Source: a phage
Length of the DNA: 64,000 bases
Sequence record: NC_104726.1
Direction: 5' to 3' (one strand)
Under the pieces are notes generated by a model. It ran no database searches. It had not been told where the DNA came from and was given only the letters and a program-made list of their open reading frames with translations. Positions 25,970-64,000 of the stretch are shown here, piece after piece. How positions within the stretch are numbered: the first letter of the stretch is position 1; the number at the start of each line of letters is the position of its first letter. A program made the position numbers and the translations under genes.

Positions 25970-26774
25970 TTAGATAAAACGCTTGAACATAGAAGGTGAT
26001 GAGATTGATGGAATCACACAAGGAAGTGCTACCTCCTCTTTCTCCAGGAAATTAATCGCAGAAGCTACACAGTCTGCCCAGTCGTCTTTTCTGTTAAATG
26101 TTGATCTTTCCCCGTTGAATTTTTCAAGTTCAGTCAGAAATGCTTCCAGAGTATCAGGATGGAAACTGGATTTTACAATTCTCACCATTCCTTGTTGGGC
26201 AAGATTGGCAAAAGGTGAGAACCTTGTCAGTTTAGATTTGTTGGAAGGCATTGGGTCTTCTTCAACCCTAAACCCTTCGGCGAGCAGGGATCTGGAGGAG
26301 GTTAAGAACTCACTCTTACCTGCCTGCCCTGGGTCCACAGAGAAGACGATTATGCAATCATCACCATCGAACTGCGCCTGTTTCCTGATGATCACATCTC
26401 GTTCACCAGCCTTTTTACAGAACTTGCCTTCCAATCCTGTGGAATACCTCCCGTCATCCACGTTCTCAGGACAATAATCACCTGACAGGTAATAAAAGCC
26501 GTCGCTATCTTTACTTACCTTAATACTGGCAGTAAAGTCAGGAAATTTATTACCGGAAGTTCTCTCGGTTCCTGCCTTATCCCATGCCCTGCAAGATACT
26601 GATCCAAGGGGTACTCTATCGGCATCACGAAGGAAAGATCTTTGAAAATAGTTTGCACCCTCAGGCTTTGCAAACCAGTTACCATGGAGAAGCTGAGCTT
26701 TTTCCAGCTCTGGTAGACCTTCGAGGAAAGCAAGGTATTCTGGGTTGTCTCTCAAACAGACAGGATTATCGAAT
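25970..26774 (-). CDS. terL: terminase large subunit, exon 3 (nuclease domain)
   Basis: continues FDNPVCLRDNPEYLAFLEGLPELEKAQLLHGNW...; frame open upstream of annotated start to 26774; joins exon 2 in phase. Confidence 0.7.
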
Positions 26775-27753
26775 CCTTATATTCAAAGGTGGTCGCAACA
26801 CCACCCTCCGCACCATTACGTGCCGCTGCATGTTACCATGCAGAGTAGACTATATCACCACCCATCTCAGGGTGCTTCGCTTTTCGAGCGCCATAGGCTT
26901 GCGCCCTACTCCCTCTCGGGATAGTCGTTGAACTACATTACCAATCGTAATTGTTTGAAATATAGGTGTAAGTCTTACGGTCTTTTATTCCTTTAACAAC
27001 ACTAAAACTTACGCCCCACTTCTTAGCTATTTTATTTACACACAAAACCCTATCACTAAGATCCTCGCAGATACCTATTATCTTGTGCTCACTTATCCTA
27101 TTAGAGGTTGGCACTTTTCTAAAGTTAAACTCTTTAGAAATATCTGGGTATACTGAGCCATTCTTTATACCACTTACAAGTGGTTGATTGACACCAAACA
27201 TTTCACAAATGTCTTTTACCCTTGCACCTTGCTCTAACAGTCTACATATTTCAAGAGCAGTGGCATCATCTAGGGACCTGTATTTATTGACATAGTCCTT
27301 TTTAAGTCCCATTTCATGAGCATGATGTGTGTTTTCCTCAGGTGTTGTCCACTCAAGGTTCCATGCGGCGTTATTCAACTTATTGCCATCAAGGTGATTT
27401 ACTTGAGTTTTCACGCTGGGATTATCATTATCAACAAAAGTCATAGCAATCACTCTGTGAACGAGCACTTGGAACTTTTTACCGTCCTCGCACAAAGTTA
27501 CCATAGCATAGCCAGTCTTTTTCTGCACATTAGGATGGAGGAATTTATTAGAATACAGACTGTAAATTCTGCCATCGTATGTAGCACAATAATGATTGTA
27601 GCCTAAAAAGCCTAAATTTTTCATTTCAAACATCTCCCTACTACAGGTTCGGAAGGGTAATTATAGCTGCTGATTGTCCGTTTAGCAATCGGATTTTCCA
27701 GCAATTAACGAAGTTATTCGACGTGCATTTCTGCACGAAGCCACTATCATTTA
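26775..27753 (-). mobile_element. group I intron 2 in terL, carrying HNH homing endonuclease ORF
   Basis: interrupts terL between ...SFSFIGATI and FDNPVCL...; coding strand carries R-like GTTCAACGACTA (26933-26922) and S-like GATATAGTC; exon ends in U, intron ends in G; boundaries +/- ~15 nt. Confidence 0.6.
26938..27633 (-). CDS. intron-encoded HNH homing endonuclease
   Basis: 231 aa; HNH motif HRVIAMTFVDNDNPSVKTQVNHLDGNKLNNAAWNLEW; lies wholly inside terL intron 2. Confidence 0.75.
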   Translation of the reverse strand: MFEMKNLGFLGYNHYCATYDGRIYSLYSNKFLHPNVQKKTGYAMVTLCEDGKKFQVLVHRVIAMTFVDNDNPSVKTQVNHLDGNKLNNAAWNLEWTTPEENTHHAHEMGLKKDYVNKYRSLDDATALEICRLLEQGARVKDICEMFGVNQPLVSGIKNGSVYPDISKEFNFRKVPTSNRISEHKIIGICEDLSDRVLCVNKIAKKWGVSFSVVKGIKDRKTYTYISNNYDW

Positions 27754-28073
27754 ATGGTTGCGCCTATGAACGAGAATGACAACGGTCTTGGCTTGATCTC
27801 TACGCCAAGTCCGTTAACCGTGGTGTATTTCTCTATCAACTCTTCTTTAGAATCTCCCCATATAAATTCACCGTCGCGTCGGATAAAATATCTTTTCTTA
27901 CCGCATTTCTCCGGATCTGGATACCCTTCATCGTCCAACCACCATCTAACCAGTTTGGCAAGCATGTGTTCTGAATCTGGGTTACAGCTGATAACCATTC
28001 TTGATGGATACTTTGACTGAGATCGCAGACGAGACATCAGATAGTCTATCTGCTCCCATTCGAATTGTGTCGT
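27754..28073 (-). CDS. terL: terminase large subunit, exon 2
   Basis: TTQFEWEQIDYLMSRLRSQSKYPSRMVISCNPD...; in-frame continuation upstream of the annotated Met. Confidence 0.65.
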
Positions 28074-28390
28074 CTATGTTCGGGCAAGGTCGCTAGTCTT
28101 GCCCCGCCATTTTTCAGGCAGCTGCATGTCTCCATGCAGACCAGACTATATCTTATAAGCGACAACAACCGCTTACCCTCCCGTTTCGAATCGCTTGATT
28201 CTACGTCTTTCGACTAGTCGTTGAACGTTCATCCTCTCGGATGCTTCGCTGCGGATTATCTAAATTAACACACTGTTACCATACCTTCGATCTCTCTTCG
28301 AAGCCTCTATCATGTTACCATGACAGGTTGGTGGTGTCAATAATAAAGATTTCCCCGCAATTAGGGAGGTTTTACGAGAGCTACAAATTA
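28074..28390 (-). mobile_element. group I intron 1 in terL (no ORF)
   Basis: separates Walker-B exon (…MVCFDEG) from exon 2; coding strand has GTTCAACGACTAG (28225-28213) and AAGATATAGTCTGG (28154-28141); begins after U, ends with G; shares CTGCATG-N5-CATGCAG hairpin with intron 2. Confidence 0.6.
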
Positions 28391-28816
28391 ACCCTCATCG
28401 AAGCAAACCATGGTGTACTCAAGCCCTTGATGGTTAAGCTTATCTTGTACATACTCCATGTGGCAGTATTTTACAACAGCTCCCTTTTTGCTTCTATCCC
28501 ACTTACCAGTGTTAGGATCAAACCGTGGAAAAATGAACTTATGATCCTTCTCTCTGAACTTTGGCTTAATGTTTTCAGGCAGATCACTATAAATAGCTAC
28601 TGCTTTAGGCCATAGTCCACCCTCACCCTCCAACTGTGGAGTTGTTCTTCGGAACATAACCACAGAGCTGTGGGGGTCATCAATAATTTTAAGCGGCATC
28701 AACTGCAAAAGGAACGACTTGCCAGACCCTGCGGCACCGCCGATTACCAAAATATCTGCATCGTTTTCGAGGATCATCTTCTGCTTTTCAGAACACGGTC
28801 CGTAAATCTTAGACAT
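28391..28816 (-). CDS. terL: terminase large subunit, exon 1 (ATPase N-terminus)
   Basis: Walker A GGAAGSGKS and Walker B MVCFDE; ORF track 28388..28816 ends at an in-frame stop that is the first codon of the intron. Confidence 0.75.
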
Positions 28817-29919: not shown

Positions 29920-29996
29920 TGGTCTCCACGGAGTGATTCGAACACTCGACCTCCTGATCCCAAATCAGGCGCTCTACCAAGCTGAGCTACGCGGAG
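29920..29996 (-). tRNA. tRNA-Pro (anticodon UGG)
   Basis: manual fold: acceptor CTCCGCG/CGTGGAG, D arm GCTC..GAGC, anticodon loop TTTGGGA, T loop TTCGAAT, encoded CCA. Confidence 0.75.
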
Positions 29997-30007
29997 TATT
30001 TACTATT

Positions 30008-30082
30008 TGGTGGCCCTGGGTGGAATTGAACCACCGTCTGGCGATTATGAGTCGCTTGCTTGAACCTTCCAGCTACAGGGCC
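30008..30082 (-). tRNA. tRNA-Met (anticodon CAU; Met/Ile2 type undetermined)
   Basis: manual fold: acceptor GGCCCTG/CAGGGCC, anticodon loop CTCATAA, T arm GGTGG-TTCAATT-CCACC, encoded CCA. Confidence 0.7.
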
Positions 30083-30083
30083 T

Positions 30084-30159
30084 TGGTGCTGATGGCAGGA
30101 CTTTAACCTACAACCTATTGATTACAAATCAATTGCACTACCGATTTTGCTACATCAGC
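30084..30159 (-). tRNA. tRNA-Thr (anticodon UGU)
   Basis: manual fold: acceptor GCTGATG/CATCAGC, anticodon arm ATTGA-TTTGTAA-TCAAT, encoded CCA. Confidence 0.7.
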
Positions 30160-30164
30160 AAAAA

Positions 30165-30263
30165 GGTGCTAGGTGATGGAATCGAACCACCTATGTATTC
30201 AACGACTACCTCGTCTATTTTCAGGATTAAAAATCCTCGCCCTTGCCAAAGGGCTTACCTAGC
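30165..30263 (-). tRNA. atypical tRNA-Lys (anticodon UUU) with ~29-nt extra hairpin in variable region
   Basis: acceptor GCTAGGT/ACCTAGC, D arm GCCC-TTTGGCAA-GGGC, anticodon arm AGGA-TTTTTAA-TCCT, T arm GGTGG-TTCGATT-CCATC; 99 nt, extra segment AAAATAGACGAGGTAGTCGTTGAATACAT between anticodon and T arms. Confidence 0.5.
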
Positions 30264-30361
30264 TCAGTATGTTGACCATGTTGCTAGTCGGCGATGACGA
30301 CTGTAACATTTGATAATCCGGTTCTGCTTCCGACTTTCGCTTAATTACAAGGTCAACAATG

Positions 30362-30452
30362 TGGCGGAGAGTAATGGAATCGAACCATCATCGAGTCATC
30401 CTCAACGGGACGGTTTTCAAGACCGCTTGAGCACCATTGCTCCCTACCCTCC
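30362..30452 (-). tRNA. tRNA-Ser (anticodon UGA), type II
   Basis: acceptor GGAGGGT/ACTCTCC, anticodon arm GCGGT-CTTGAAA-ACCGT, long variable arm, encoded CCA. Confidence 0.7.
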
Positions 30453-30566
30453 TTTATAAATAATACTGATAATGACACTGATTTTCGAGCAGTTAGTGAC
30501 TAGTATAAACGACGATAAATATCAATGCCATTATCTGTATTATTTATGCATCTAAAAATATAAATT

Positions 30567-30653
30567 TGGTGGGGAGTGGTGGAGTCGAACCACCCGAGTC
30601 GCAATGACAATAGATTTACAGTCTACACCGCTACCTCTACGGGATAACTCCCC
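30567..30653 (-). tRNA. tRNA-Tyr (anticodon GUA), type II
   Basis: acceptor GGGGAGT/ACTCCCC, anticodon arm GTAGA-CTGTAAA-TCTAT, long variable arm, T arm GGTGG-TTCGACT-CCACC, encoded CCA. Confidence 0.65.
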
Positions 30654-30657
30654 AATT

Positions 30658-30732
30658 TGGCACCCCGTACTGGACTCGAACCAGTGTCAACGGCTTAGAA
30701 GGCCGCTGCTTTATCCACTAAGCTAACAGGGC
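30658..30732 (-). tRNA. tRNA-Arg (anticodon UCU)
   Basis: acceptor GCCCTGT/ACGGGGT (two G-U pairs), D arm GCTT..AAGC, anticodon arm GCGGC-CTTCTAA-GCCGT, encoded CCA. Confidence 0.65.
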
Positions 30733-54480: not shown

Positions 54481-55337
54481 AAGTTGTAAAACGGGACGGT
54501 AGAGAAGAGTTCTATAACGGAATTAAGGTGATCAAGGCGGCAGAGTCCGCCTTACTTGAGTCTGGACATACTGAAGAAGAAGCTTACCGGATCGCTTGTG
54601 CGGTTAATGAAGTTGTTGCTAACAATCTGCCAACCGACCAGTGCACGATCTCTGTAAAAAATATCCATATCCTTGTTGAAGATGCTCTTATGGATATGGG
54701 TTTAAAATGTGCAGCCAGAGAATACATCCAGTATAGACAGACAAGAGATAATAACAGAGAGGCAGGTGGAAAACTGCTTGCAGATATTAGTGGCTTCTTG
54801 GATCGAACTTGTGATGAATTTACAAAAGAAAACGCAAATAAGCCTACTAATCATGTACACACTCATCGCGACCTGCTTGCAGGTATTCTTAGCAAACACC
54901 TTGCATCAACACAGATCCTGCCAGACCGTGTCTCCGAAGAGCACAATAAAGGCTTCATCCATGTGCATGATCTTGACTACTTGATCAGTCCGTTAACAAA
55001 CTGTTGCTTGGTAAATTATCCAGATATGTTGGAAAACGGATTCAACATTGGTAACGCCCATGTCAGTAAGCCGAAGTCAATAGGGGTTGCAACAACAATC
55101 CTTAGCCAAATCTCTAGTGCGGTAGCTAGTGCTCAATATGGTGGTCAGACTATGAGCCATATTGATCATTATCTGGCACAGTATGCTGAAGCGACCTATG
55201 AGAAGAACCTTAAATTTTGCCAGGAACATTGGTTGCCAGATGCTGAAACTGTTGCAATGCAAATGACAGATAAAGACGTGTTTGACAGCATGCAGACGTT
55301 GCTTTATCAGATCAACACACTAACCTCGGTAAACGGT
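54477..55337 (+). CDS. nrdD: anaerobic ribonucleotide reductase, exon 1
   Basis: GTG start overlapping grx stop; ATP-cone; ...FIHVHDLDY...TNCCLVNY...; ends ...QINTLTSVNG, colinear with T4 NrdD ...VNTLFSSNG. Confidence 0.75.
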
Positions 55338-55594
55338 TAACAAACTGGCCGTTTTAAAACTCTGCTAACCTTAGTATGAGGGGTCAGCTGATCGCTGGCT
55401 AACGGGGAACGCTAAGGCGAAAGCTATGCCAATCCCGTGACTAGCTTCACAAGGAGTGAGGCGGTTGTAACGACTAACCTTTTGGTGTAGGGATTATGGA
55501 AGATTCCGAAACGCAGGGGTCTGATTAAGAATCACACGGTGTGATTTCAGGCAAGAGATAGTCTGGCCTTGTGGAAACATAAGGGTGGGGACCG
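55338..55594 (+). mobile_element. group I intron in nrdD (no ORF)
   Basis: 257 nt with stops in all frames between exon 1 (...SVNG) and exon 2 (QTPFITL...); exon ends in U, intron ends in G; R-like GTTGTAACGACTAA and S-like AAGAGATAGTCTGG. Confidence 0.6.
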
Positions 55595-56857
55595 CAAACC
55601 CCTTTTATCACATTAAGTTTAGGACTGGATACCTCGGTCTTTGGTAGAATGATTACCAAAAATTACTTGAAAGTCCACAAAATGGGTCTTGGTGAAGAAC
55701 GGATCACACCTGTGTTCCCTAAAGTGCTGTTCTTCCTAGAAGAGGGTGTCAACATGAACCCTGAGGATCCTAACTATGATTTGAAACGATTAGCTCTGGA
55801 ATGCTGTGCAGAACGTATCTACCCTGACTTCGTATCTGTACCACTAAATAGAAAAGTGACAGGCTCGACAGATGGCAAAGTAACGAGCATGGGTTGCCGG
55901 AGTTTTCTTAGCAAATACAGTGACTTGGAAACAGGCGAGGAGAAATATCTTGGCAGATTTAACTTAGGCGTTGTTAGCCTTAACCTACCAATGATTGCGG
56001 CAAAAGCTAAGACGGAAGGTGTTGATTTCTTTGCAGTTCTTGACGAATACTTGGATCTTGCATACGAGGCTCACCTTGTAAGGGTTAACCGTCTAAAAGG
56101 AACAAAGGCAGGGCAGAACCCCATCATGTGGTGTGAAGGAGCTCTTGCTCGCCTGGATCCTGAAGAGAGTATTGATAAACTCTTCTATGACGGGTACGCT
56201 TCCATCAGCATTGGGTATATTGGTGTGTATGAAACCTGTCAGATTTTGGGTAGAGAGGGTGACAAGGCTTTAGCTCTTGGAATCCTTCAGCACATGAGAG
56301 ATGCTTGTGAGCGATACAAGAAGGAAAGTAGACTAGCGTTTAGCTTGTACGGCACTCCTTCTGAGAGTCTATGCTATAAAGCTGCAACCTGTCTGGATCG
56401 TGAATATCCGGAAGTGTTGAAGCACGAGCATGAATATCTCACCAACAGTTTCCATCAGCCAGTATGGATCAATAGCTCTCCTTTTGATAAGTGGGAGTAT
56501 GAGGAAGGTTTTGCTATGATCTCCTCCGGTGGCAACATCGGATACGTAGAGACACCTAACCTGAAAAACAACCTTGATGCTTTAGAGGCTCTTGTTGACT
56601 TCGGGTATAAACACATTATGTATTTTGGTATTAACCAACCTGTGGATAAATGTCTCAAGTGTGGTTTCTCTGGTGAGTTCAGTGCAACAGCTAAAGGGTT
56701 CTGCTGCCCTGCGTGCGGATGCCACGATGAACAATATATCTCAGTGATCCGAAGAGTGTCTGGATACCTTTCCAGTCCTAACTCCCGTCCTTACAATAAA
56801 GGTAAGCAAGCGGAAGTTATCGAGCGAGTTAAGCACTACGGAAGTTGTGGTTGCTGA
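55595..56857 (+). CDS. nrdD: anaerobic ribonucleotide reductase, exon 2
   Basis: QTPFITLSLGLDTS... colinear with T4 NrdD QTPFVTITFGTGTD; C-terminal zinc site CLKCGF...CPACGC and glycyl-radical motif RVSGYL. Confidence 0.75.
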   Translation, partial: QTPFITLSLGLDTSVFGRMITKNYLKVHKMGLGEERITPVFPKVLFFLEEGVNMNPEDPNYDLKRLALECCAERIYPDFVSVPLNRKVTGSTDGKVTSMGCRSFLSKYSDLETGEEKYLGRFNLGVVSLNLPMIAAKAKTEGVDFFAVLDEYLDLAYEAHLVRVNRLKGTKAGQNPIMWCEGALARLDPEESIDKLFYDGYASISIGYIGVYETCQILGREGDKALALGILQHMRDACERYKKESRLAFSLYGTPSESLCYKAATCLDREYPEVLKHEHEYLTNSFHQPVWINSSPFDKWEYEEGFAMISSGGNIGYVETPNLKNNLDALEALVDFGYKHIMYFGINQPVDKCLKCGFSGEFSATAKGFCCPACGCHDEQYISVIRRVSGYLSSPNSRPYNKGKQAEVIERVKHYGSCGC

Positions 56858-56923
56858 TACTTGACAAAAGCCACAAGGATGTGGCACCCTTAGTTCAAAG
56901 ACGAGAACTAAGAGGATTCAGCA

Positions 56924-58084
56924 GTGAGAAAACTTACAACCGAAGATTTTATAGAGGGGGCGAAAGCAGTTCATGGTGATAAATATGATTATTCCAAAGT
57001 CAAATATGTGGGTGCACACACCAAGGTTGTAATTATATGCCCTGAGCATGGAGAATTTAAGAAAACTCTTGGAGATCACCTCCGTAAAAAACAGGGTTGC
57101 CCAAAATGTCAGATTGAAGCAGAAAGAGCGGCTTCTGCTGAAAAATTTAAAGCGGAGGCCGAGGCTAAGTATAATTATAAATATGATTACTCTAAGGTAG
57201 AGTATGTAAATGCTAAAACTAAAGTTGTGATTGTTTGTCCTGTTCACGGCGAGTTTGAGCAAAAGCCTGATAACCATCTCCGCGAGGGGGGTTGCCGTAA
57301 GTGTGGAGGAACTGAGAGAAAGACTACTGAAGAGTGGATCGCTGAGGCAAAAGCGCTTCATGGCGATAAGTATGATTACTCTCTTGTAAATTATAAAACC
57401 GGTAATGATAAAGTGGAGATAATCTGTAATACATGTGGTGCTCACTTCCCACAAAGACCTCATGACCATGCACCAAGTGGAAAAGGTTGCCCCGAGTGCG
57501 GGAAGAAGAAGGTGGCCGAGGTTAGTAGGAAGACGCAGAGAAAGAAAGCATCTGAGGTAGCTAAAAGGTTTGAGGCAAGAGCCAGAGCTATCCATAAAGA
57601 TAAATACGATTATTCCGGGGTGGAATATGTTAATAGGGAGACAGAGGTCACTATCATCTGTCCGATTCACGGGGAGTTCACACAAAAACCGTTTGTCCAC
57701 ATCAACCAAAAAGCTGGCTGTCAAAAATGTGCTAAAGTCGGCTTCTTATCTCATGAACATGGTAGCCTTTATATCATGGTTGACGATCTGGAAGTACCAA
57801 CTATGATGAAAATTGGTGTGAGTGTCCGGGTAGATGAACGAAGAAAAGATGTGTTAAAAAGAGCTAAAAAAGCTGGTGCTAGATTCTCTGATCTACATGT
57901 TATAAAAACTTGGGAAGGAACAACAGACGACATGCAAACTTTAGAAAAAGCTATGCACCAAGCCTTGAGCCAATACAAAATCAACTTCACAGAGAAGTTT
58001 GATGGCTGTCGAGAGTTCTTCTACTACAGACCGGAGGTATTCGAGCTAGTAGAAGAACATTTGAAGAAATTTGCTAATAAATAA
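56924..58084 (+). CDS. homing-endonuclease-like protein: four zinc-ribbon repeats plus C-terminal T5orf172-type domain
   Basis: 386 aa, GTG start; repeats HGDKYDYSKVKYV...ICPEHGEF...GCPKC x4; C-terminal ...GCREFFY resembles T5orf172 domain. Confidence 0.55.
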   Translation: MRKLTTEDFIEGAKAVHGDKYDYSKVKYVGAHTKVVIICPEHGEFKKTLGDHLRKKQGCPKCQIEAERAASAEKFKAEAEAKYNYKYDYSKVEYVNAKTKVVIVCPVHGEFEQKPDNHLREGGCRKCGGTERKTTEEWIAEAKALHGDKYDYSLVNYKTGNDKVEIICNTCGAHFPQRPHDHAPSGKGCPECGKKKVAEVSRKTQRKKASEVAKRFEARARAIHKDKYDYSGVEYVNRETEVTIICPIHGEFTQKPFVHINQKAGCQKCAKVGFLSHEHGSLYIMVDDLEVPTMMKIGVSVRVDERRKDVLKRAKKAGARFSDLHVIKTWEGTTDDMQTLEKAMHQALSQYKINFTEKFDGCREFFYYRPEVFELVEEHLKKFANK

Positions 58085-58145
58085 TAACACACAAAGGGCC
58101 AGCTTTATTCTAGCCCTTCAGTCCGTTGTAAATTAAGGAGTTGTT

Positions 58146-58271
58146 ATGTCATCTGGTGGCTTTAAAGTAAAAATTTGTAAACACTGCGGTTGTAAGTGCA
58201 ATCTTCGTTGGTGCAAGGCACTGGACGATTTTATTTGGCATTGCCCTAAATGTGATGCGGAGTATCTATGA
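58146..58271 (+). CDS. small zinc-ribbon protein
   Basis: 41-aa ORF MSSGGFKVKICKHCGCKCNLRWCKALDDFIWHCPKCDAEYL, stop overlaps nrdG start (ATGA); below ORF-track size cutoff. Confidence 0.35.
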   Translation: MSSGGFKVKICKHCGCKCNLRWCKALDDFIWHCPKCDAEYL

Positions 58272-58741
58272 ATATTGCCGGATACACAGAAATATCTTAC
58301 ACCGAAGGGCCAGGTATTAGAACTGCCTTATGGGTATCTGGGTGCCCACACGCTTGCCCTGGTTGCTTTAATCAGGCATTTTGGTCAAAAGATAAGGGGA
58401 GAGAGTTTACTGAAGAAGACTTGCAAAAAATCTTGTCAGATTTAGATAACCCGTCTGTGTGCGGTATCTCTCTGCTGGGTGGAGAACCCTTAGCATACTA
58501 TAATGAGCCAGATATTATTAGCCTGATGGAGAAAATTAAGGAAAAATTTGGTGACAAGAAAACTATTCTTGTATATACTGGGTTCACATTTGACCATATC
58601 TCTAGTAATGTTCTTAAACTGGCTGATATCATCATTGACGGTAAGTATGTAAAAGATTTACCAACCAAGAAACCGTTCCGAGGTAGCGATAACCAAAGAA
58701 TGTTTAAAAAAGTAGCAGGCGGTTGGGTCCAGGTAGACTAG
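58268..58741 (+). CDS. nrdG: anaerobic ribonucleotide reductase activating protein (radical SAM)
   Basis: 157 aa; CPHACPGC radical-SAM cysteine motif. Confidence 0.75.
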   Translation: MNIAGYTEISYTEGPGIRTALWVSGCPHACPGCFNQAFWSKDKGREFTEEDLQKILSDLDNPSVCGISLLGGEPLAYYNEPDIISLMEKIKEKFGDKKTILVYTGFTFDHISSNVLKLADIIIDGKYVKDLPTKKPFRGSDNQRMFKKVAGGWVQVD

Positions 58742-58744
58742 TTG

Positions 58745-58774
58745 TTGACAAAGCTTTGTTTAGATAGGTATAAT
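58745..58774 (+). promoter_or_regulatory. early promoter (TTGACAAA ... TATAAT family)
   Basis: TTGACA-18 nt-TATAAT, followed by AGGAGG RBS of small ORF. Confidence 0.55.
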
Positions 58775-58805
58775 TATCGTAAAATGAAAGCAGAGGAGGT
58801 GCCAA

Positions 58806-58919
58806 ATGGCTAAAAAAGCCTTGAAGAAGGCGTACAAGAAAGAGATTGCGCTTGAGCTTAAGAAAAAACACAAGCGTGAAAAGAAACATCATGAAGATGA
58901 AGAGGGGGTGCAACAGTGA
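58806..58919 (+). CDS. small basic protein
   Basis: 37-aa ORF MAKKALKKAYKKEIALELKKKHKREKKHHEDEEGVQQ with strong RBS; stop overlaps next start. Confidence 0.35.
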   Translation: MAKKALKKAYKKEIALELKKKHKREKKHHEDEEGVQQ

Positions 58920-59266
58920 CACAAGAACGTATCGATTTGGCTAATAAGTTTGTAGATCTCATTTTGCCACGGTTAGTTACTCAACATGCAGATGCTATTT
59001 CTACTAATCTTGATGGCTTACGTCTAATGCTGAATCGCACAGATGACCCTCGTATTCGGGCTGATTTAGAAGCCTCTGCCAACAAACTGGAAAAGTTCTT
59101 GCAAGTAGGTACGCAAGAAGCCTTACACAAGATTATGGTGGAAGGTTTCTCTAAAGAATTTACCATTAAAGAGCTTAAGGAGCTGATCCACCAAGAAGAG
59201 ATGAATATCCGAGTTCAGGCTGTTGCAAGCAGCATGGAAGCGGCTATTGAAAAACTGTTGCAGTAA
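58916..59266 (+). CDS. hypothetical protein
   Basis: 116-aa helical ORF, GTG start. Confidence 0.35.
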   Translation: MTQERIDLANKFVDLILPRLVTQHADAISTNLDGLRLMLNRTDDPRIRADLEASANKLEKFLQVGTQEALHKIMVEGFSKEFTIKELKELIHQEEMNIRVQAVASSMEAAIEKLLQ

Positions 59267-59304
59267 AAGTTCCAGACACATCTCAATCTGAAAGGAGTCC
59301 CAAC

Positions 59305-60099
59305 ATGGGTCGAGCTAAAGAAACAAAACGCATGCGTGATGAAGCTAAAGAGGCTCGCAAATCTGATCGCCTGCGTAAAGCTGCTGAGAAATTTGCTGAA
59401 GAACGAGAGCACACAGCTCCAGCTCTCCGACCGATGAATAAAAAACAAGAGTATTATCTCCACCTTCTTAAAACTAAACAGTTAGTGATCGCAACAGGGC
59501 TGTTTGGCACAGGCAAGTCGTTTATGGCTGCAGCTTATGCTGCAGACCTGCTTCGTAAGAACGAGATTGATAGAATTATTGTTTGCCGCCCAAATGTTGA
59601 ATGTGGAAGCCATGGCACGGGGTTCAAACCTGGAGGTGTATTACAGAAAAACGAACCTTTCTTAAAATCAATTTTAGAAACTCTCAAAAAACGACTCGGA
59701 CCTGGTGCTTATAGTACGTTATTGGGAGACGGTCAGACTGGGCGCATCGAGGTGCAAGAGGTTGCAACAATCCGAGGTCGAGATTTCTCTGATCGTTGCA
59801 TCATCCTAGTTGATGAGTTTCAGTTGACAACCTGTGCAGAGGCTTTGGCAATTGCCACACGGCTTGGTGAGCATGCACAAATGATTTGCATGGGAGACTT
59901 ACGACAGAACGATCTCAAAGGCACCTCAGGACTTCAGTGGCTGATCGACTTTGTAACGAGGCACGAAATCAACGGTGTTGGTATCGTAGATTTTGACGAG
60001 CCAGAAGATGTGGTTCGCTCAGGTATTGGTAGACTGTTTGCACTAGGCCTTATGACTGACCGTAATAAAGGTGTGTGGACCCCTGAGGCAGGTTTATAA
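59305..60099 (+). CDS. phoH: PhoH-like ATPase
   Basis: 264 aa; Walker A GLFGTGKSF; Walker B ILVDEFQ. Confidence 0.7.
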   Translation: MGRAKETKRMRDEAKEARKSDRLRKAAEKFAEEREHTAPALRPMNKKQEYYLHLLKTKQLVIATGLFGTGKSFMAAAYAADLLRKNEIDRIIVCRPNVECGSHGTGFKPGGVLQKNEPFLKSILETLKKRLGPGAYSTLLGDGQTGRIEVQEVATIRGRDFSDRCIILVDEFQLTTCAEALAIATRLGEHAQMICMGDLRQNDLKGTSGLQWLIDFVTRHEINGVGIVDFDEPEDVVRSGIGRLFALGLMTDRNKGVWTPEAGL

Positions 60100-60111
60100 T
60101 ATATATAGGAG

Positions 60112-60135
60112 AGAGGGTGATATTATTCACCCTCT
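60112..60135 (+). terminator. hairpin after phoH
   Basis: perfect inverted repeat AGAGGGTGA-TATTAT-TCACCCTCT. Confidence 0.35.
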
Positions 60136-60142
60136 ATTTAAG

Positions 60143-61072
60143 ATGCGTTTAGGAGAACAGTTATCACGAGAAGAAGTGTTTATCAAGAAAGCTACTGATA
60201 AGCATGGTGACAAGTATGATTACTCCAAAGTTGTATACAAAAACAACACAACACCTGTGAATATAGTGTGCAACAAGTGTGGTACAGTTTTTAGTAAAAC
60301 TCCTAAGTCTCACCTTATAGGCGCAGGATGCCCAGATTGTAAGAACAGGGAGTTAAGTGAGAGATTCCGAATGTCTAAGGAGGAGTTTGTAAAAAGGGCA
60401 ACAGAACTGCACAAGGGGAAGTATGACTACTCTCTTGTAAAAAGTTTTTCTAACAGGAACGACACTGTTACTATTATTTGCCCCATCCACGGAGAGTTCA
60501 AGCAGACAGTTGCAAATCATTTAGCTGGTGGGTGCTACAAGTGTGGAAAAAGAGCGACAGCTAAAAAGATGAGGAAGTCTAAAGATAGATTCATAGAGGA
60601 TGCTACTCAACTACACGGAGACATATATGACTATTCAGAAGTGAAGTATGTGAATACCCACACTCCTGTAACCATTATCTGCAAGTCTTGCGGGTGTAAG
60701 TTTCTTCAACAGCCTGCAAACCACCTGTGCGGTAACGGTTGCCCAGAATGCTCTACTTCAGGATTCAGGCAGAGTACTAAAGAGAGCTGTCTGTACCTTC
60801 TTGTTGATGATCTTACCATTCCCACGGTTATAAAAGTTGGGGTGACTATCAATCTACAGAGCAGACTATACAACATAAGAAGGAACACAAATTTTCCTGT
60901 TCACGTGCTTAAAGTATTTACTTTCGAGCAGGGGTGTGCTACCATGCAGATTGAAAAATTGGTGCATAAAGTCTTTGCAGATCGCAACTGCCACTTCGAA
61001 GGTTTCGACGGGGCAACGGAGTGGTTCTGGTACTCTCATGATATTGTAGAGTTTCTAGAAGACAATTGTTGA
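60143..61072 (+). CDS. homing-endonuclease-like protein, paralog: three zinc-ribbon repeats plus T5orf172-type domain
   Basis: ORF 60071..61072 trimmed to Met at 60143 (after hairpin); repeats HGDKYDYSKVVYK...CNKCG...GCPDCK x3; C-terminal ...GATEWFWY. Confidence 0.55.
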   Translation: MRLGEQLSREEVFIKKATDKHGDKYDYSKVVYKNNTTPVNIVCNKCGTVFSKTPKSHLIGAGCPDCKNRELSERFRMSKEEFVKRATELHKGKYDYSLVKSFSNRNDTVTIICPIHGEFKQTVANHLAGGCYKCGKRATAKKMRKSKDRFIEDATQLHGDIYDYSEVKYVNTHTPVTIICKSCGCKFLQQPANHLCGNGCPECSTSGFRQSTKESCLYLLVDDLTIPTVIKVGVTINLQSRLYNIRRNTNFPVHVLKVFTFEQGCATMQIEKLVHKVFADRNCHFEGFDGATEWFWYSHDIVEFLEDNC

Positions 61073-61097
61073 CAAACAGATAAGCTTTAGGTATTAT
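61069..61097 (+). promoter_or_regulatory. early promoter (TTGACAAA ... TATTATCGG family)
   Basis: TTGACA-17 nt-TATTAT; near-identical architecture to promoters at 58745 and 41892. Confidence 0.55.
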
Positions 61098-61127
61098 TAT
61101 CGGACAAAACAAGGAGAAGGAGATAGT

Positions 61128-61439
61128 ATGGCTACAATACAAGAGAGACTGAATAAAATATACTGCCTGTTTGTCTATAACGGCGAGACAATTTTGGCAA
61201 ATAAAGGATCCAAGAATGTGTGGATCAAGGACAGTGGTGGTAATATAATCAACTTAGCGTTGCTACGTGAGCGCCGACACAGATTCTTTATCGAGTCTCG
61301 GATTATTGAAAGCAGCACCTGCTACAGAACAGGCGATAAAGTAATTGTTGACAATGATACGTGGTATGTGGTAGACTGGCAATCATTGAGCTGTGATGCT
61401 TCTGACAATCGTAAGTATTCCCTAGTGATTGCTAAATAA
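61128..61439 (+). CDS. hypothetical protein
   Basis: 103-aa ORF with GGAGAAGGAG RBS. Confidence 0.4.
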   Translation: MATIQERLNKIYCLFVYNGETILANKGSKNVWIKDSGGNIINLALLRERRHRFFIESRIIESSTCYRTGDKVIVDNDTWYVVDWQSLSCDASDNRKYSLVIAK

Positions 61440-61499
61440 AGGTAAATGTGAATCAGTTTTAAATAAATAGCTTTCAACTTCCAATATTAAGGATTTCTC

Positions 61500-62549
61500 A
61501 TGAATTTAACACCTCGCAGCACCATGGTACACGGCATGAAAGAAAAACAGAACGGTTTCGAACCTATGAGTAATAAAATGTTTGGTATGCCGGGTGGTAT
61601 TATGGAAACATACAGCTACCCAACACCTGTTGTTGACCACGTTCTTTATATCGACGATTTGGAAGACTTACAAGATCATATGTCTCGTCTGCAGACGATC
61701 CGTATGGCTCAGCCAGAAGAAAGTATCCGTGTAATCATTAACAGTCCTGGTGGTTGCGTTCACATTGCTATGGCGTATTTGCAGGCATTCCGCGAGTCTC
61801 AGGCAAGCGTTGTTGCACATGCTGAAGGGATGTGCTGCTCTGCTGGAACAATCTTATGGCTTGGTTGTAAAGAACGTACTGTGGCTCCGGACACAGAGTT
61901 TATGTTCCACTACTATCAAGGTGGCACTTATGGTAACGGTGTGAACATGAATACTCAGGTCAGCTACTGGAAAAAACGTTTTGAACGCCTGATCGAAAAA
62001 TACTACGGTGGGGTGCTGACAGAAGATGAGATCGCATCCATCACAGCTGGTGGCGAAGTGTGGTTGGACGGAGAAGAGCTGGCAGCACGCACTGGAGCTA
62101 TTATTCTGGATGAAGGCAACATACAACGCATCCAGAACGGACAAAAACCGAAAAAGCTTCTGGCAAAAGGTGATGAAGAAGGCGTGTTAGGTGAAGCAGG
62201 TCTTCCGGAGATTCACCAGTGCACATCTTTAGATGAGTTAGTTCATGCTGTTGAATCTGCAAAAGCGGGTGGTTCGAAAGGTGATGTTCACACTGTGTTC
62301 CTGAATCTGCAGATGGAGAGTGGCGAGACCGTCAGAATTGCCCTGGGTGAGATTACTTCAGAAGATCTGCAGAGATTCTCTGTCGTTGAACTTCAGGATA
62401 TTCTGTCTCAATTGAAGACTACTCTGAACGGCGGTGAAGAGGTTAAGGTGAAAGATAAGACTCGCAAGCGTCTGGTGGACAATATTATTAAAACAGCAAA
62501 AGAGCTCAATGAAAAAATCCTGGGTGCAGGAATTGTCGAAGAAGCTTAA
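61500..62549 (+). CDS. ClpP-like serine protease with C-terminal helical extension
   Basis: 349 aa; VIINSPGG, GMCCSAGT (Ser), FMFHYYQGG (His); ~150-aa charged helical C-terminal region. Confidence 0.6.
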   Translation: MNLTPRSTMVHGMKEKQNGFEPMSNKMFGMPGGIMETYSYPTPVVDHVLYIDDLEDLQDHMSRLQTIRMAQPEESIRVIINSPGGCVHIAMAYLQAFRESQASVVAHAEGMCCSAGTILWLGCKERTVAPDTEFMFHYYQGGTYGNGVNMNTQVSYWKKRFERLIEKYYGGVLTEDEIASITAGGEVWLDGEELAARTGAIILDEGNIQRIQNGQKPKKLLAKGDEEGVLGEAGLPEIHQCTSLDELVHAVESAKAGGSKGDVHTVFLNLQMESGETVRIALGEITSEDLQRFSVVELQDILSQLKTTLNGGEEVKVKDKTRKRLVDNIIKTAKELNEKILGAGIVEEA

Positions 62550-62562
62550 ACATTAATTCTAA

Positions 62563-62586
62563 AGCCCTCTTCGGAGGGCTTTTATG
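62563..62586 (+). terminator. rho-independent terminator after ClpP-like gene
   Basis: hairpin AGCCCTC-TTCG-GAGGGCT followed by TTTTA. Confidence 0.6.
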
Positions 62587-62600
62587 ATCTGGAGATTTGC

Positions 62601-63134
62601 ATGACTTGTGCTAGAAAACCTGATGAACAACGTAACGCCTACGATGAGTATGTGACACCGGAGTGGTGTGCAGAAGGGCTGTATGACCTTATTCCGTTCC
62701 CAGAAGACTGGACCTACTTAGAGCCTTGCAGGAATAGTGCCTCAGGTGTGTTCTACTCCCGTATGCCGTTAGGATCTGCATGGGGAGAAATACAAGAAGG
62801 TGTTGACTATCTGAATACAGAATACAACCATGTTGACTGTATTATCACCAACCCACCATACAGCCTGGCTCGTGAGTTTGTAGACAAGGCGTTGAAAGAT
62901 GCTGACGTAGTTATTATGCTTTTGCGTCTTAATTTTCTGGAAAGCAAAGCCAGATTTGAATGGTGGCTTGATAATGCACCTACTACTGTGATCACAATAT
63001 CTAAGCGTCCATCATTTCAATCAAACGGCAGAACTGACGGGCAAGCATATGCATATTTTGTGTGGGATAAGAAAAACCGTTTAGACTTGCCGCCGTTTAT
63101 GTGGTTGGCACCCCCAGAGGTAGACCTGAAATGA
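62601..63134 (+). CDS. phage-type N6-adenine DNA methyltransferase (NPPY motif)
   Basis: 177 aa; IITNPPY catalytic motif; small single-domain enzyme. Confidence 0.6.
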   Translation: MTCARKPDEQRNAYDEYVTPEWCAEGLYDLIPFPEDWTYLEPCRNSASGVFYSRMPLGSAWGEIQEGVDYLNTEYNHVDCIITNPPYSLAREFVDKALKDADVVIMLLRLNFLESKARFEWWLDNAPTTVITISKRPSFQSNGRTDGQAYAYFVWDKKNRLDLPPFMWLAPPEVDLK

Positions 63135-63415
63135 AAATGAGTGCTAAGGACAAATTACACCATCTAGCGCTAAAACGCCCTGTAACGCTCCCTGACGAGC
63201 TTAACTCCATTTATGATGCGATTGTAGGGGAGATACAAAATAAAGCGTTAGCAGGCTTTCTGGGGTGCGGATTTTCGATAAATCTACCCTCGCATCTCTC
63301 AGATTACTTCCCGCACATTGTTGGAGATTTAAGGGCAGGAGGTCTGCAGGTAGATGTTGTTGGGATCTCCCCAGAGAAAAATAATACGGTTGCCTACTTG
63401 ACAGTAACCTGGTAG
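63131..63415 (+). CDS. hypothetical protein
   Basis: ORF 63101..63415 trimmed to Met at 63131. Confidence 0.3.
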   Translation: MKMSAKDKLHHLALKRPVTLPDELNSIYDAIVGEIQNKALAGFLGCGFSINLPSHLSDYFPHIVGDLRAGGLQVDVVGISPEKNNTVAYLTVTW

Positions 63416-63451
63416 TTGTGTATTGTTGTTTTCAACAAGAGGGGGTCATTT

Positions 63452-63691
63452 ATGTACAAGTCATTTTCAATCTACTCAAGACAGGCGAAACACTACACAG
63501 AGATCCTGATCACTCAGAAAAAATCTGTGGAAGGTGAGTGGGAATATCACCATAAAATGTTGCGTCCAGACTGGGTTTTTGATAGACTTATTGCTATGAT
63601 CCCTCTCGGAGAAGTATACCCTCTGACAGCCCATCGCGATGCTTGGGATTTAATTGATTACATAGATTCATTTAAGGAGCCTAGATTATGA
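63452..63691 (+). CDS. hypothetical protein
   Basis: ORF 63416..63691 trimmed to Met at 63452 (AGAGGGGG RBS). Confidence 0.3.
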   Translation: MYKSFSIYSRQAKHYTEILITQKKSVEGEWEYHHKMLRPDWVFDRLIAMIPLGEVYPLTAHRDAWDLIDYIDSFKEPRL

Positions 63692-64000
63692 AGATTGAGA
63701 TTACTAAAGAAGGTAAGAAAGTGTCCGGCAACTATGCAACAGTAATTCGGGATTTAATGTTTGAAGCCACCAAGATCGGTACATCTAAAGTTGGTCAAAC
63801 TGTTAGTGTGAAAAGTAATATCTCCACAGGAGAGAAGGTATTCATTGTGGTCAAAGGGCAGGATCCCGTGGAAGGAACAGTGGGCCGAGGTGGCTACCTG
63901 TGCATTTCTGAAGAGCCGCGTATGTTAGTGGCTGACGCTACTATGGGTGGGAAACGTGTGTGCGAGGCGGATGAGGTAATGATTATCCAACCTGTTGATC
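63688..64000 (+). CDS. hypothetical protein, 5' portion (continues beyond right edge of window)
   Basis: ATG at 63688 (ATGA overlap), frame open to 64000: MKIEITKEGKKVSGNYATVIRDL... Confidence 0.35.
   Translation, partial: MKIEITKEGKKVSGNYATVIRDLMFEATKIGTSKVGQTVSVKSNISTGEKVFIVVKGQDPVEGTVGRGGYLCISEEPRMLVADATMGGKRVCEADEVMIIQPVD

Follow-up and report, generated by a model that had tools for sequence, protein, structure and literature searches.

Two genes of vB_EcoM_SophiaRose, a Vequintavirus and rV5-like Escherichia coli myophage, are probably (with a likelihood of roughly 80%) free-standing homing endonuclease genes (HEGs) of the T5orf172 branch of the GIY-YIG superfamily. Both lie in the 64,000-nucleotide stretch of sequence record NC_104726.1 that was analysed as a whole (hereafter the window), and are designated gene A and gene B:

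56924..58084, plus strand: gene A, 386 amino acids (aa), GTG start, putative free-standing T5orf172/GIY-YIG homing endonuclease (open reading frame (ORF), Pfam and phrog_681).
60143..61072, plus strand: gene B, 309 aa, ATG start, putative free-standing T5orf172/GIY-YIG homing endonuclease (ORF, Pfam and phrog_681).

The two genes combine an N-terminal array of zinc-ribbon repeats with a C-terminal nuclease-type domain, are inserted at exact intergenic junctions, are present sporadically among related phages, and are each linked to divergent flanking DNA. A homing-endonuclease identity had been proposed for both in a sequence-only reading of the same DNA, and the precise junctions, the sporadic occupancy and the gene-linked divergent flanks support that proposal; both ORFs are intact at the coordinates it gave. 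Gene A is preceded by a Shine-Dalgarno sequence, AAGAGGA, 8 nucleotides (nt) 5' of its GTG. The longest ORF of gene B begins at a GTG at 60071; the ATG at 60143 agrees with the 930-base-pair (bp) gene annotated in phages navn, phiWec191 and YP-6. The predicted products are identical to QXN68891.1 (gene A) and QXN68897.1 (gene B), both of which are named "putative GIY-YIG nuclease family protein".

The two proteins are divided into the following regions:

56936..57730, plus strand: predicted DNA-binding array of gene A, four treble-clef zinc-ribbon repeats at aa 5-62, 71-127, 134-192 and 212-269 (repeat extraction, Pfam DUF723/DUF4379).
57731..58081, plus strand: C-terminal T5orf172 (GIY-YIG superfamily) nuclease domain of gene A (Pfam T5orf172 at aa 282-372, MUG113 at aa 296-384).
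60167..60751, plus strand: predicted DNA-binding array of gene B, three zinc-ribbon repeats at aa 9-66, 78-134 and 146-203 (repeat extraction, Pfam and structural model).
60752..61069, plus strand: C-terminal T5orf172 nuclease domain of gene B, with a predicted GIY-YIG fold.

The repeats have a core of 57-59 aa and a period of 63-78 aa, and each runs from a helix through the motif HGDKYDYS to a short beta-hairpin with C-x2-H/C and finally C-x2-C. The previously reported copy numbers, four in A and three in B, hold; the reported unit of about 48 aa corresponds to the portion between HGDKYDYS and the CxxC. In Pfam, the gene A product matches DUF723 (1.4e-14), DUF4379 (4.9e-12), T5orf172 (6e-6, 27.1 bits) and MUG113 (4.9e-7, 30.7 bits), and the gene B product matches DUF4379 (5.1e-10), T5orf172 (3.1e-9, 37.7 bits), MUG113 (7.1e-8, 33.4 bits) and also DUF723; both proteins exceed the family cut-offs for T5orf172 (20 bits) and MUG113 (22.3 bits). 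DUF4379 is described in Pfam as a "probable treble clef zinc finger", and MUG113 is a related GIY-YIG-type family. In PHROGs, the "endonuclease" family phrog_681 is matched by both A (5e-81) and B (1.2e-66), and NCBIfam gave no match. The alignment of A with B (37% identity over 325 aa, E 6e-55), in which the order of domains is identical, identifies the two as paralogs, and together with Pfam it bears out the common architecture of repeats followed by a T5orf172-like C-terminus. No further paralog was found within the window. The zinc-ribbon repeats are common to more than 7,600 proteins, many with 5-8 repeats and some with another C-terminal domain (such as PF04480, a Vsr-like endonuclease); because of this breadth and the varied C-terminal domains, the array can be regarded as a widely reused DNA-binding module.

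Sequence searches of PDB chains with A and B returned nothing significant, and structural models were used to examine the fold. In an AlphaFold model of the full-length gene B product (predicted local distance difference test (pLDDT) 81.9, predicted template modelling score (pTM) 0.36), the domains are confident one by one and their arrangement is not fixed; each repeat is modelled as a helix plus small beta-hairpin unit, with a pLDDT of about 85-92. At this pTM the placement of the domains relative to one another is arbitrary, and a fold search of the PDB with the full-length model is therefore uninformative and gave meaningless matches only. When the C-terminal domain is modelled alone (pLDDT 89, pTM 0.80), the best matches in the PDB are GIY-YIG nucleases, among them PD-T4-3 and I-TevI (both 4.4), UvrC (4.0), Eco29kI (4.0) and T4 EndoII (3.7). 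Foldseek also ranked the GIY-YIG fold first, weakly. The model thus points to a GIY-YIG alpha/beta fold, in agreement with Pfam and with the literature, which places T5orf172 in the GIY-YIG superfamily; C-termini lacking a T5orf172 or GIY-YIG match had been named in advance as the outcome that would speak against homing endonucleases, and this outcome did not occur.

The C-terminal domain is also conserved at the positions at which a nuclease of this type would be expected to be conserved. In a ten-member alignment (gene B numbering), R241, E271, G290, E293 and F295 do not vary, and conservation is at least 90% at Y218, K231, G233 and H275; the conserved positions Y, K-x-G, R, E, H and G-x-x-E-x-F occur in A and B alike. 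Judged from this alignment, the residues of the GIY-YIG catalytic core (the strand-1 Tyr, the strand-2 Gly, the helix-1 Arg and the metal-binding Glu) appear to be kept. Searches of proteins with the C-terminal domain only gave 3 matches when word-indexed and 259 clusters when run exhaustively against representatives, and in the latter the domain is nearly always C-terminal. In Odn, a T5orf172 nuclease, a conserved glutamate is needed for cleavage in vitro and in vivo (PMC8263062), and in the CapR zinc finger paired cysteines are needed for sequence-specific DNA binding (PMC8096241). By analogy with the homolog Odn, a metal-dependent endonuclease activity is predicted for A and B.

On the plus strand, the region begins with nrdB and glutaredoxin, followed by nrdD (into which a 308-bp insert lacking any ORF is placed), gene A, a Cys-rich ORF of 41 aa and nrdG; two small ORFs, phoH, gene B, an ORF of 103 aa and a ClpP-like protease come next. 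ORF and Pfam analysis confirms the neighbours nrdG and phoH that had been recognized previously, and adds the split nrdD. Insertion between conserved metabolic genes, also proposed from the letters of the sequence, can be mapped at both sites to within a few bases; nrdD, the small ORF, nrdG, phoH and the downstream promoter are all intact around the insertions, and neither A nor B lies within an intron or intein. The inserts, with a guanine-plus-cytosine fraction of 0.41-0.46 against 0.43 for the window, show no anomaly of base composition.

The 8.2-kb region around both genes matches 126 phage records at 90-99% identity, and the megablast counts that follow are among about 119-126 related Vequintavirus records. 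Gene A was found in one other phage record, that of O157 typing phage 14, at an identity of 99.6%, and six records have gene B, at 98.4-99.9%. Universal conservation at these positions had been named as the second outcome that would speak against homing endonucleases, and the genes are far from universal. A query representing the empty site B aligns without a break in 113 of the 119 records, the six carriers matching the right flank only; for the corresponding query of the empty site A this holds in at least 68 of the 119, the remainder breaking further right or matching the right flank only. In 19 records, another gene, of 933 bp, fills site A:

L005 3841-4773 (phage navn), and 18 other records: site-A paralog navn_83, 310 aa, in the nrdD-nrdG gap.

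These genes are at least 98% identical among themselves. The navn_83 protein is 48% identical to that of gene A, matches DUF723, DUF4379, CapR (6.6e-10) and T5orf172 in Pfam, and has two zinc-ribbon repeats by motif scan. Its presence in the nrdD-nrdG gap, where other phages have gene A, indicates turnover of HEG alleles at a single site. A and B occur together in none of the phage records searched; site A of the gene B carriers is either empty or filled by the paralog, and typing phage 14 has gene A without gene B, so the two genes assort independently. In public assemblies, clustering at 90% gave 14 member sequences for A and 54 for B, mostly on phage-sized contigs of about 135-140 kb, and the A and B ORFs are intact in all copies seen. 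About 20 GenBank records of the series MG0656xx ("Campylobacter phage C2, C5, D1, A14x ...") are 95-99% identical to E. coli Vequintaviruses across the region; their Campylobacter jejuni host label is probably wrong, or the records are contaminants.

Sporadic presence and absence at one locus, as found in these comparisons, is a pattern expected of free-standing HEGs. It might also be produced by ordinary modular recombination and deletion, if the genes were ancestral and had been lost many times, and the genomes of Vequintaviruses are indeed mosaic, their identity to the window varying by segment. This explanation is very improbable, as it needs exact loss in more than 100 lineages, restoring each time the same site A of about 85 bp and the native phoH. 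It must also accommodate three different paralogous nuclease genes in two neighbouring intergenic sites, and carriers in which these genes are far more conserved than the backbone.

The junctions and flanks of gene A involve several features:

56870..56885, plus strand: ancestral hairpin GCCACAAGGATGTGGC, 6-bp stem, 3' of the nrdD stop and at the left edge of insertion A.
56886..58198, plus strand: insertion A, 1313 bp in place of about 85 bp of the empty allele (alignment with phiWec191, Murica and YP-6; same segment in O157 typing phage 14).
56887..56915, plus strand: hairpin inside insertion A, the 3' arm of which holds the gene A Shine-Dalgarno sequence (AAGAGG).
58092..58120, plus strand: stem-loop directly 3' of the gene A stop, in the insertion (sequence and scan; z -0.25).
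58146..58271, plus strand: small Cys-rich ORF, 41 aa (MSSGGFKVKICKHCGCKCNLRWCKALDDFIWHCPKCDAEYL), the stop of which overlaps the nrdG start (ATGA); candidate target region for A.

The hairpin GCCACAAGGATGTGGC is considered ancestral because it occurs also in phages without gene A, and homology to empty-site phages stops right after it. The sequence-only reading had placed a hairpin before each of the two genes; both are at the positions given and fold better than shuffled sequences, but the one assigned to gene A is part of the ancestral 3' region of nrdD and not of the element. The segment 56860-56930, which covers 56870-56885 as well as the hairpin inside the insertion, has a predicted RNA fold of -21.6 kcal/mol (z -4.2), equalled by 0 of 200 shuffles. 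The stem-loop at 58092-58120 folds no better than shuffled sequence and was discarded as a meaningful structure.

At the right side of insertion A, the first ~16 codons of the small ORF (58146-58198) are re-coded in gene A carriers, which have MSSGGFKVKICKHCGCKC where non-carriers have MSSGIYKICKCGCSC; the DNA differs by indels of +6 and +3 nt, and identity is back at about 58199. Because of this re-coding, the 5' region of the small ORF is a candidate target region for A. The ORF is conserved across Vequintaviruses as a 38-aa version and matched nothing in Pfam or NCBIfam; it may encode a small zinc-ribbon partner of NrdG/NrdD. Phage phiWec191 provides a clean before/after pair for this site: it is 98-100% identical to the window in every 100-nt bin of 58200-63800, yet is without gene A. 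To the left of site A its identity is 93%, and because of this step from 93% to about 100%, gene A is located exactly at a recombination boundary. With the navn_83 paralog, the linked divergence is found not in the small ORF but in the last ~100-150 nt of nrdD, which suggests, on the evidence of these alignments, that its target differs from that of gene A.

At site B, the linked flank is most of a neighbouring gene:

59305..60099, plus strand: phoH*, a chimeric phoH allele, native to about 59440 and foreign at about 59446-60099, linked to gene B.
60112..60135, plus strand: hairpin AGAGGGTGA-N6-TCACCCTCT, 9-bp stem, between phoH* and gene B and between AGGAG (60107-60111) and the gene B ATG.
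61069..61097, plus strand: sigma-70-like promoter TTGACA-17-TATTAT at the right edge of insertion B (11/12 matches in the scan; the rV5 record annotates a promoter in this gap).

Between about 59400 and 60100, carriers and non-carriers of gene B have 50-65% nucleotide identity, and the DNA on either side is 95-100% identical. The protein encoded by the carrier allele is 60% identical overall to the PhoH of non-carriers; since its first 47 aa are nearly identical and the remainder only about 52% so, the allele is a chimera with a crossover near 59440. It is present in all six gene B carriers and in 0 of 113 non-carriers, and on every informative one of the 16 public contigs that encode it, the 309-aa gene B comes next. 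No relative of the foreign part above 52% identity was found in 50,697 phage records (tblastn) or among 5.8 billion proteins. In YP-6, the backbone is 78-92% identical to the window, but a tract at about 58800-61700 is 96-100% identical and is centred on phoH* and gene B. A reading of A and B as an "HEG island" that would mobilise the nrdG-to-phoH region as a block is not supported, given their independent distribution and the YP-6 tract, which is centred on B alone. The hairpin at 60112-60135 (predicted RNA fold -16.3 kcal/mol, z -3.1) is within the foreign segment, and non-carriers have a different hairpin 3' of phoH. The right junction of insertion B is sharp, homology with empty-site phages resuming at TTGTTGACAAA, and as a result the gene B stop codon overlaps the -35 hexamer of the promoter.

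Linked changes of the flanks that resemble co-conversion tracts are thus apparent in the alignments at both sites, with about 650 bp of phoH replaced at B, and with about 50 bp of re-coded ORF and the 93% to 100% step at A. The position of gene B, which ends inside the -35 hexamer of a conserved promoter, also brings to mind domesticated or decaying relics that bind DNA without homing, for example as regulators of the adjoining promoters (in the manner of CapR or of I-TevI autorepression), or that have no function. CapR itself is an HEG-derived zinc-finger repressor that binds a -35 element (PMC8096241), and Barth et al. warn that genomics alone cannot prove active homing (PMC10448857). In both proteins, however, the nuclease domain is complete and includes the conserved Arg and Glu, whereas CapR has no such domain; the ORFs are intact in every copy seen, and the 98-100% identity of copies on diverged backbones suggests recent spread. 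Because they are absent from most relatives, A and B are not core regulators, and relics of this kind are considered quite unlikely.

Active nucleases could also serve in competition, cutting co-infecting relatives (marker exclusion), satellites or other parasites, with the sporadic distribution reflecting an arms race. Odn of ICP1 is a T5orf172 nuclease used against a satellite (PMC8263062), and conflicts between phages and satellites have led to the repeated co-option of related HEG domains (PMC10448857). The two known copies of gene A (window 56924-58084 and L004 2764-3924) differ at five nt, and four of the five differences are nonsynonymous (D116Y, G160C, K187N and G232R), all of them within the zinc-ribbon array and so in the part that would bind DNA; these differences are too few for a selection test. 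PADLOC gives matches of A and B to the candidate defence family PDC-S57 that are very weak (E 7e-4 and 9e-5), and a reading of the genes as a defence system was rejected for this reason. The arrays are of a generic zinc-ribbon type and not a borrowed satellite domain such as RepA_N, and the fixed intergenic sites with their linked flank divergence point to targets in the cognate phage locus. A role primarily in competition is therefore unlikely, although it is not a clean rival and does not exclude homing, as marker exclusion and homing are two outcomes of one cut.

For A and B as homing endonucleases, we infer nuclease activity, targets at the altered flanks, self-immunity, homing itself and some control of translation, and a mechanism may be proposed. 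A long DNA site would be read by the three or four zinc-ribbon modules, each folded independently, in the N-terminal part of the protein, and the C-terminal GIY-YIG-type domain would cut nearby. During co-infection of a carrier with a gene-less phage, the enzyme would cut the empty allele, and recombinational repair would copy the gene and neighbouring donor DNA into the break. The carrier allele would be protected by its altered sequence around the insertion, which at A comprises the spacer 3' of nrdD and the initial ~16 codons of the small ORF that precedes nrdG, and at B the foreign allele that replaces most of phoH. The flank changes could therefore both mark co-conversion and protect the carrier allele. 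Homing by such cutting and repair is established for the Seg and Mob endonucleases of T4.

A promoter scan found no consensus promoter just upstream of A or B, and both are probably transcribed by read-through from upstream genes. Hairpins at or next to the ribosome-binding sites probably limit their translation, and it may be speculated that this is translational control in which the Shine-Dalgarno sequence of A is paired, and the AGGAG upstream of B is brought closer to the ATG when the hairpin is folded. Control at this level is a familiar theme for phage HEGs.

The strict linkage at site B invites a further, more doubtful proposal, which is that gene B and phoH* form a two-part selfish cassette in which B cuts the standard Vequintavirus phoH and the chimeric allele is the only resistant one. 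If this possibility is correct, each homing event swaps a conserved phage gene for a foreign version with no known relative above 52% identity.

Several points weigh against the interpretation of A and B as homing genes. Searches for a donor lineage of the chimeric phoH by blastn, tblastn and the 5.8-billion-protein search gave nothing with an identity between 100% and 52%, so that a transfer of B from a diverged phage has evidence on one side only; alternatively, the allele may have arisen by rapid divergence rather than from a donor lineage. As phage genomes are mosaic, ordinary recombination could also account for the divergent flanks and the identity tracts. The match of residues to I-TevI and Odn, including E293 as the catalytic Glu, was made by motif position and not by residue-level structural alignment, and no Shine-Dalgarno sequence adjoins the gene B ATG. 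Finally, according to PMC10448857, experiments have yet to confirm homing for any of the T5orf172 HEGs.

Other candidate mobile elements in the window are group I introns and an HNH gene:

28122-28400, minus strand: group I intron (84 bits, above the Rfam threshold).
26826-27064, 27402-27763 and 55328-55584: group I intron matches below the Rfam threshold.
26938-27633, minus strand: ORF with HNH_3 and helix-turn-helix domains.

The earlier count of three group I introns and two HNH genes stands in part, as one intron above threshold and one HNH_3 ORF are confirmed; three more intron matches fall below threshold, and no systematic search was made for a second HNH gene. The large terminase gene (25970-28816, minus strand) is broken up into three or more parts (Terminase_6N fragments and Terminase_6C), and contains the strong intron, two of the sub-threshold matches and the HNH_3 ORF. 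The 308-bp ORF-less insert that interrupts nrdD is at 55341-55648 (plus strand), where the group I intron model scores 29.8 bits, below threshold; nrdD is uninterrupted in Murica and typing phage 14. A further nrdD intron is found in navn, phiWec191 and YP-6, with a 169-aa HNH_3 ORF, and in EmilHeitz, with a 177-aa ORF annotated as "putative homing endonuclease". Intron models gave no match to the flanks of A and B. Collaborative homing with the nrdD intron is not supported, as typing phage 14 has gene A and an uninterrupted nrdD, and phages with nrdD introns are without gene A. The window also contains a tRNA cluster of at least six genes (Rfam tRNA matches) at 29923-30732 on the minus strand, with two more tRNA-like matches below threshold.

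A and B belong to a class that was already described in 2023, and are already labelled as GIY-YIG nucleases in the database record, so their assignment is correct but ordinary; a literature search found no papers describing these particular Vequintavirus genes. What the locus adds is a well-defined natural allele series, together with phoH*, an unexplained orphan allele in strict linkage with gene B. On E. coli K-12 hosts, site A is available empty, with gene A or with the paralog, and site B empty or with phoH* and gene B, including one near-isogenic pair. Because the empty, occupied and alternative alleles are found in culturable E. coli phages (including the BASEL collection), the locus could give the first experimental demonstration of T5orf172 homing and of target reading by tandem zinc ribbons, and the two sites define short candidate target regions for arrays of three or four. 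It also shows such genes creating recombination boundaries and swapping the alleles of neighbours in therapeutic-type coliphages.

The closest known systems are the T5orf172 HEGs surveyed by Barth, Dunham & Seed in 2023 (PMC10448857), of which 87% have CapR, DUF723 or DUF4379 zinc fingers, often in multiple copies, and which commonly adjoin terminase, ribonucleotide reductase or capsid genes and mark boundaries of genetic exchange. At least one domain of the CapR/DUF723/DUF4379 type is N-terminal to T5orf172 in both A (four repeats) and B (three), and homology to CapR is found in the site-A paralog. Like A and B, the HEGs of ICP1, T5-like, Plateaulakevirus and VpaJT-like phages (PMC10448857) have an N-terminal array of treble-clef fingers and a C-terminal T5orf172 domain, are free-standing beside genes that are essential or encode ribonucleotide reductase, differ in copy number and in occupancy, and are found at exchange boundaries. 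Vequintavirus, however, is not among the lineages highlighted in that study, and the ICP1 homologs are only about 28% identical. A and B differ further in that the exact empty and occupied alleles are to hand and in the strictly linked orphan phoH allele.

The SegA-G endonucleases of T4, and especially SegG, which is known for intronless homing, marker exclusion and co-conversion of flanks, are likewise free-standing GIY-YIG-superfamily genes between conserved genes, including those of nucleotide metabolism. The mechanism proposed for A and B would be the same, with cutting of the HEG-less allele and co-conversion of flanking markers. However, Seg proteins have a canonical GIY-YIG Pfam domain at the N-terminus and a helix-turn-helix or NUMOD-type C-terminus, whereas in A and B the order is reversed, the nuclease belongs to the T5orf172 subfamily and the binding region consists of tandem zinc ribbons. 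I-TevI of the T4 td intron differs from A and B in being intron-encoded, in its N-terminal nuclease domain and in its zinc finger, which is a distance-measuring linker and not the main binding module. Odn (ICP1 gp88) shares the T5orf172 nuclease with A and B, but binds through a RepA_N domain and is directed at a satellite origin; CapR (PLE), a repressor, shares the zinc-finger DNA-binding domain but lacks a nuclease domain. A and B combine the Odn type of nuclease with the CapR type of finger, as in the presumed ancestral form of the HEG.

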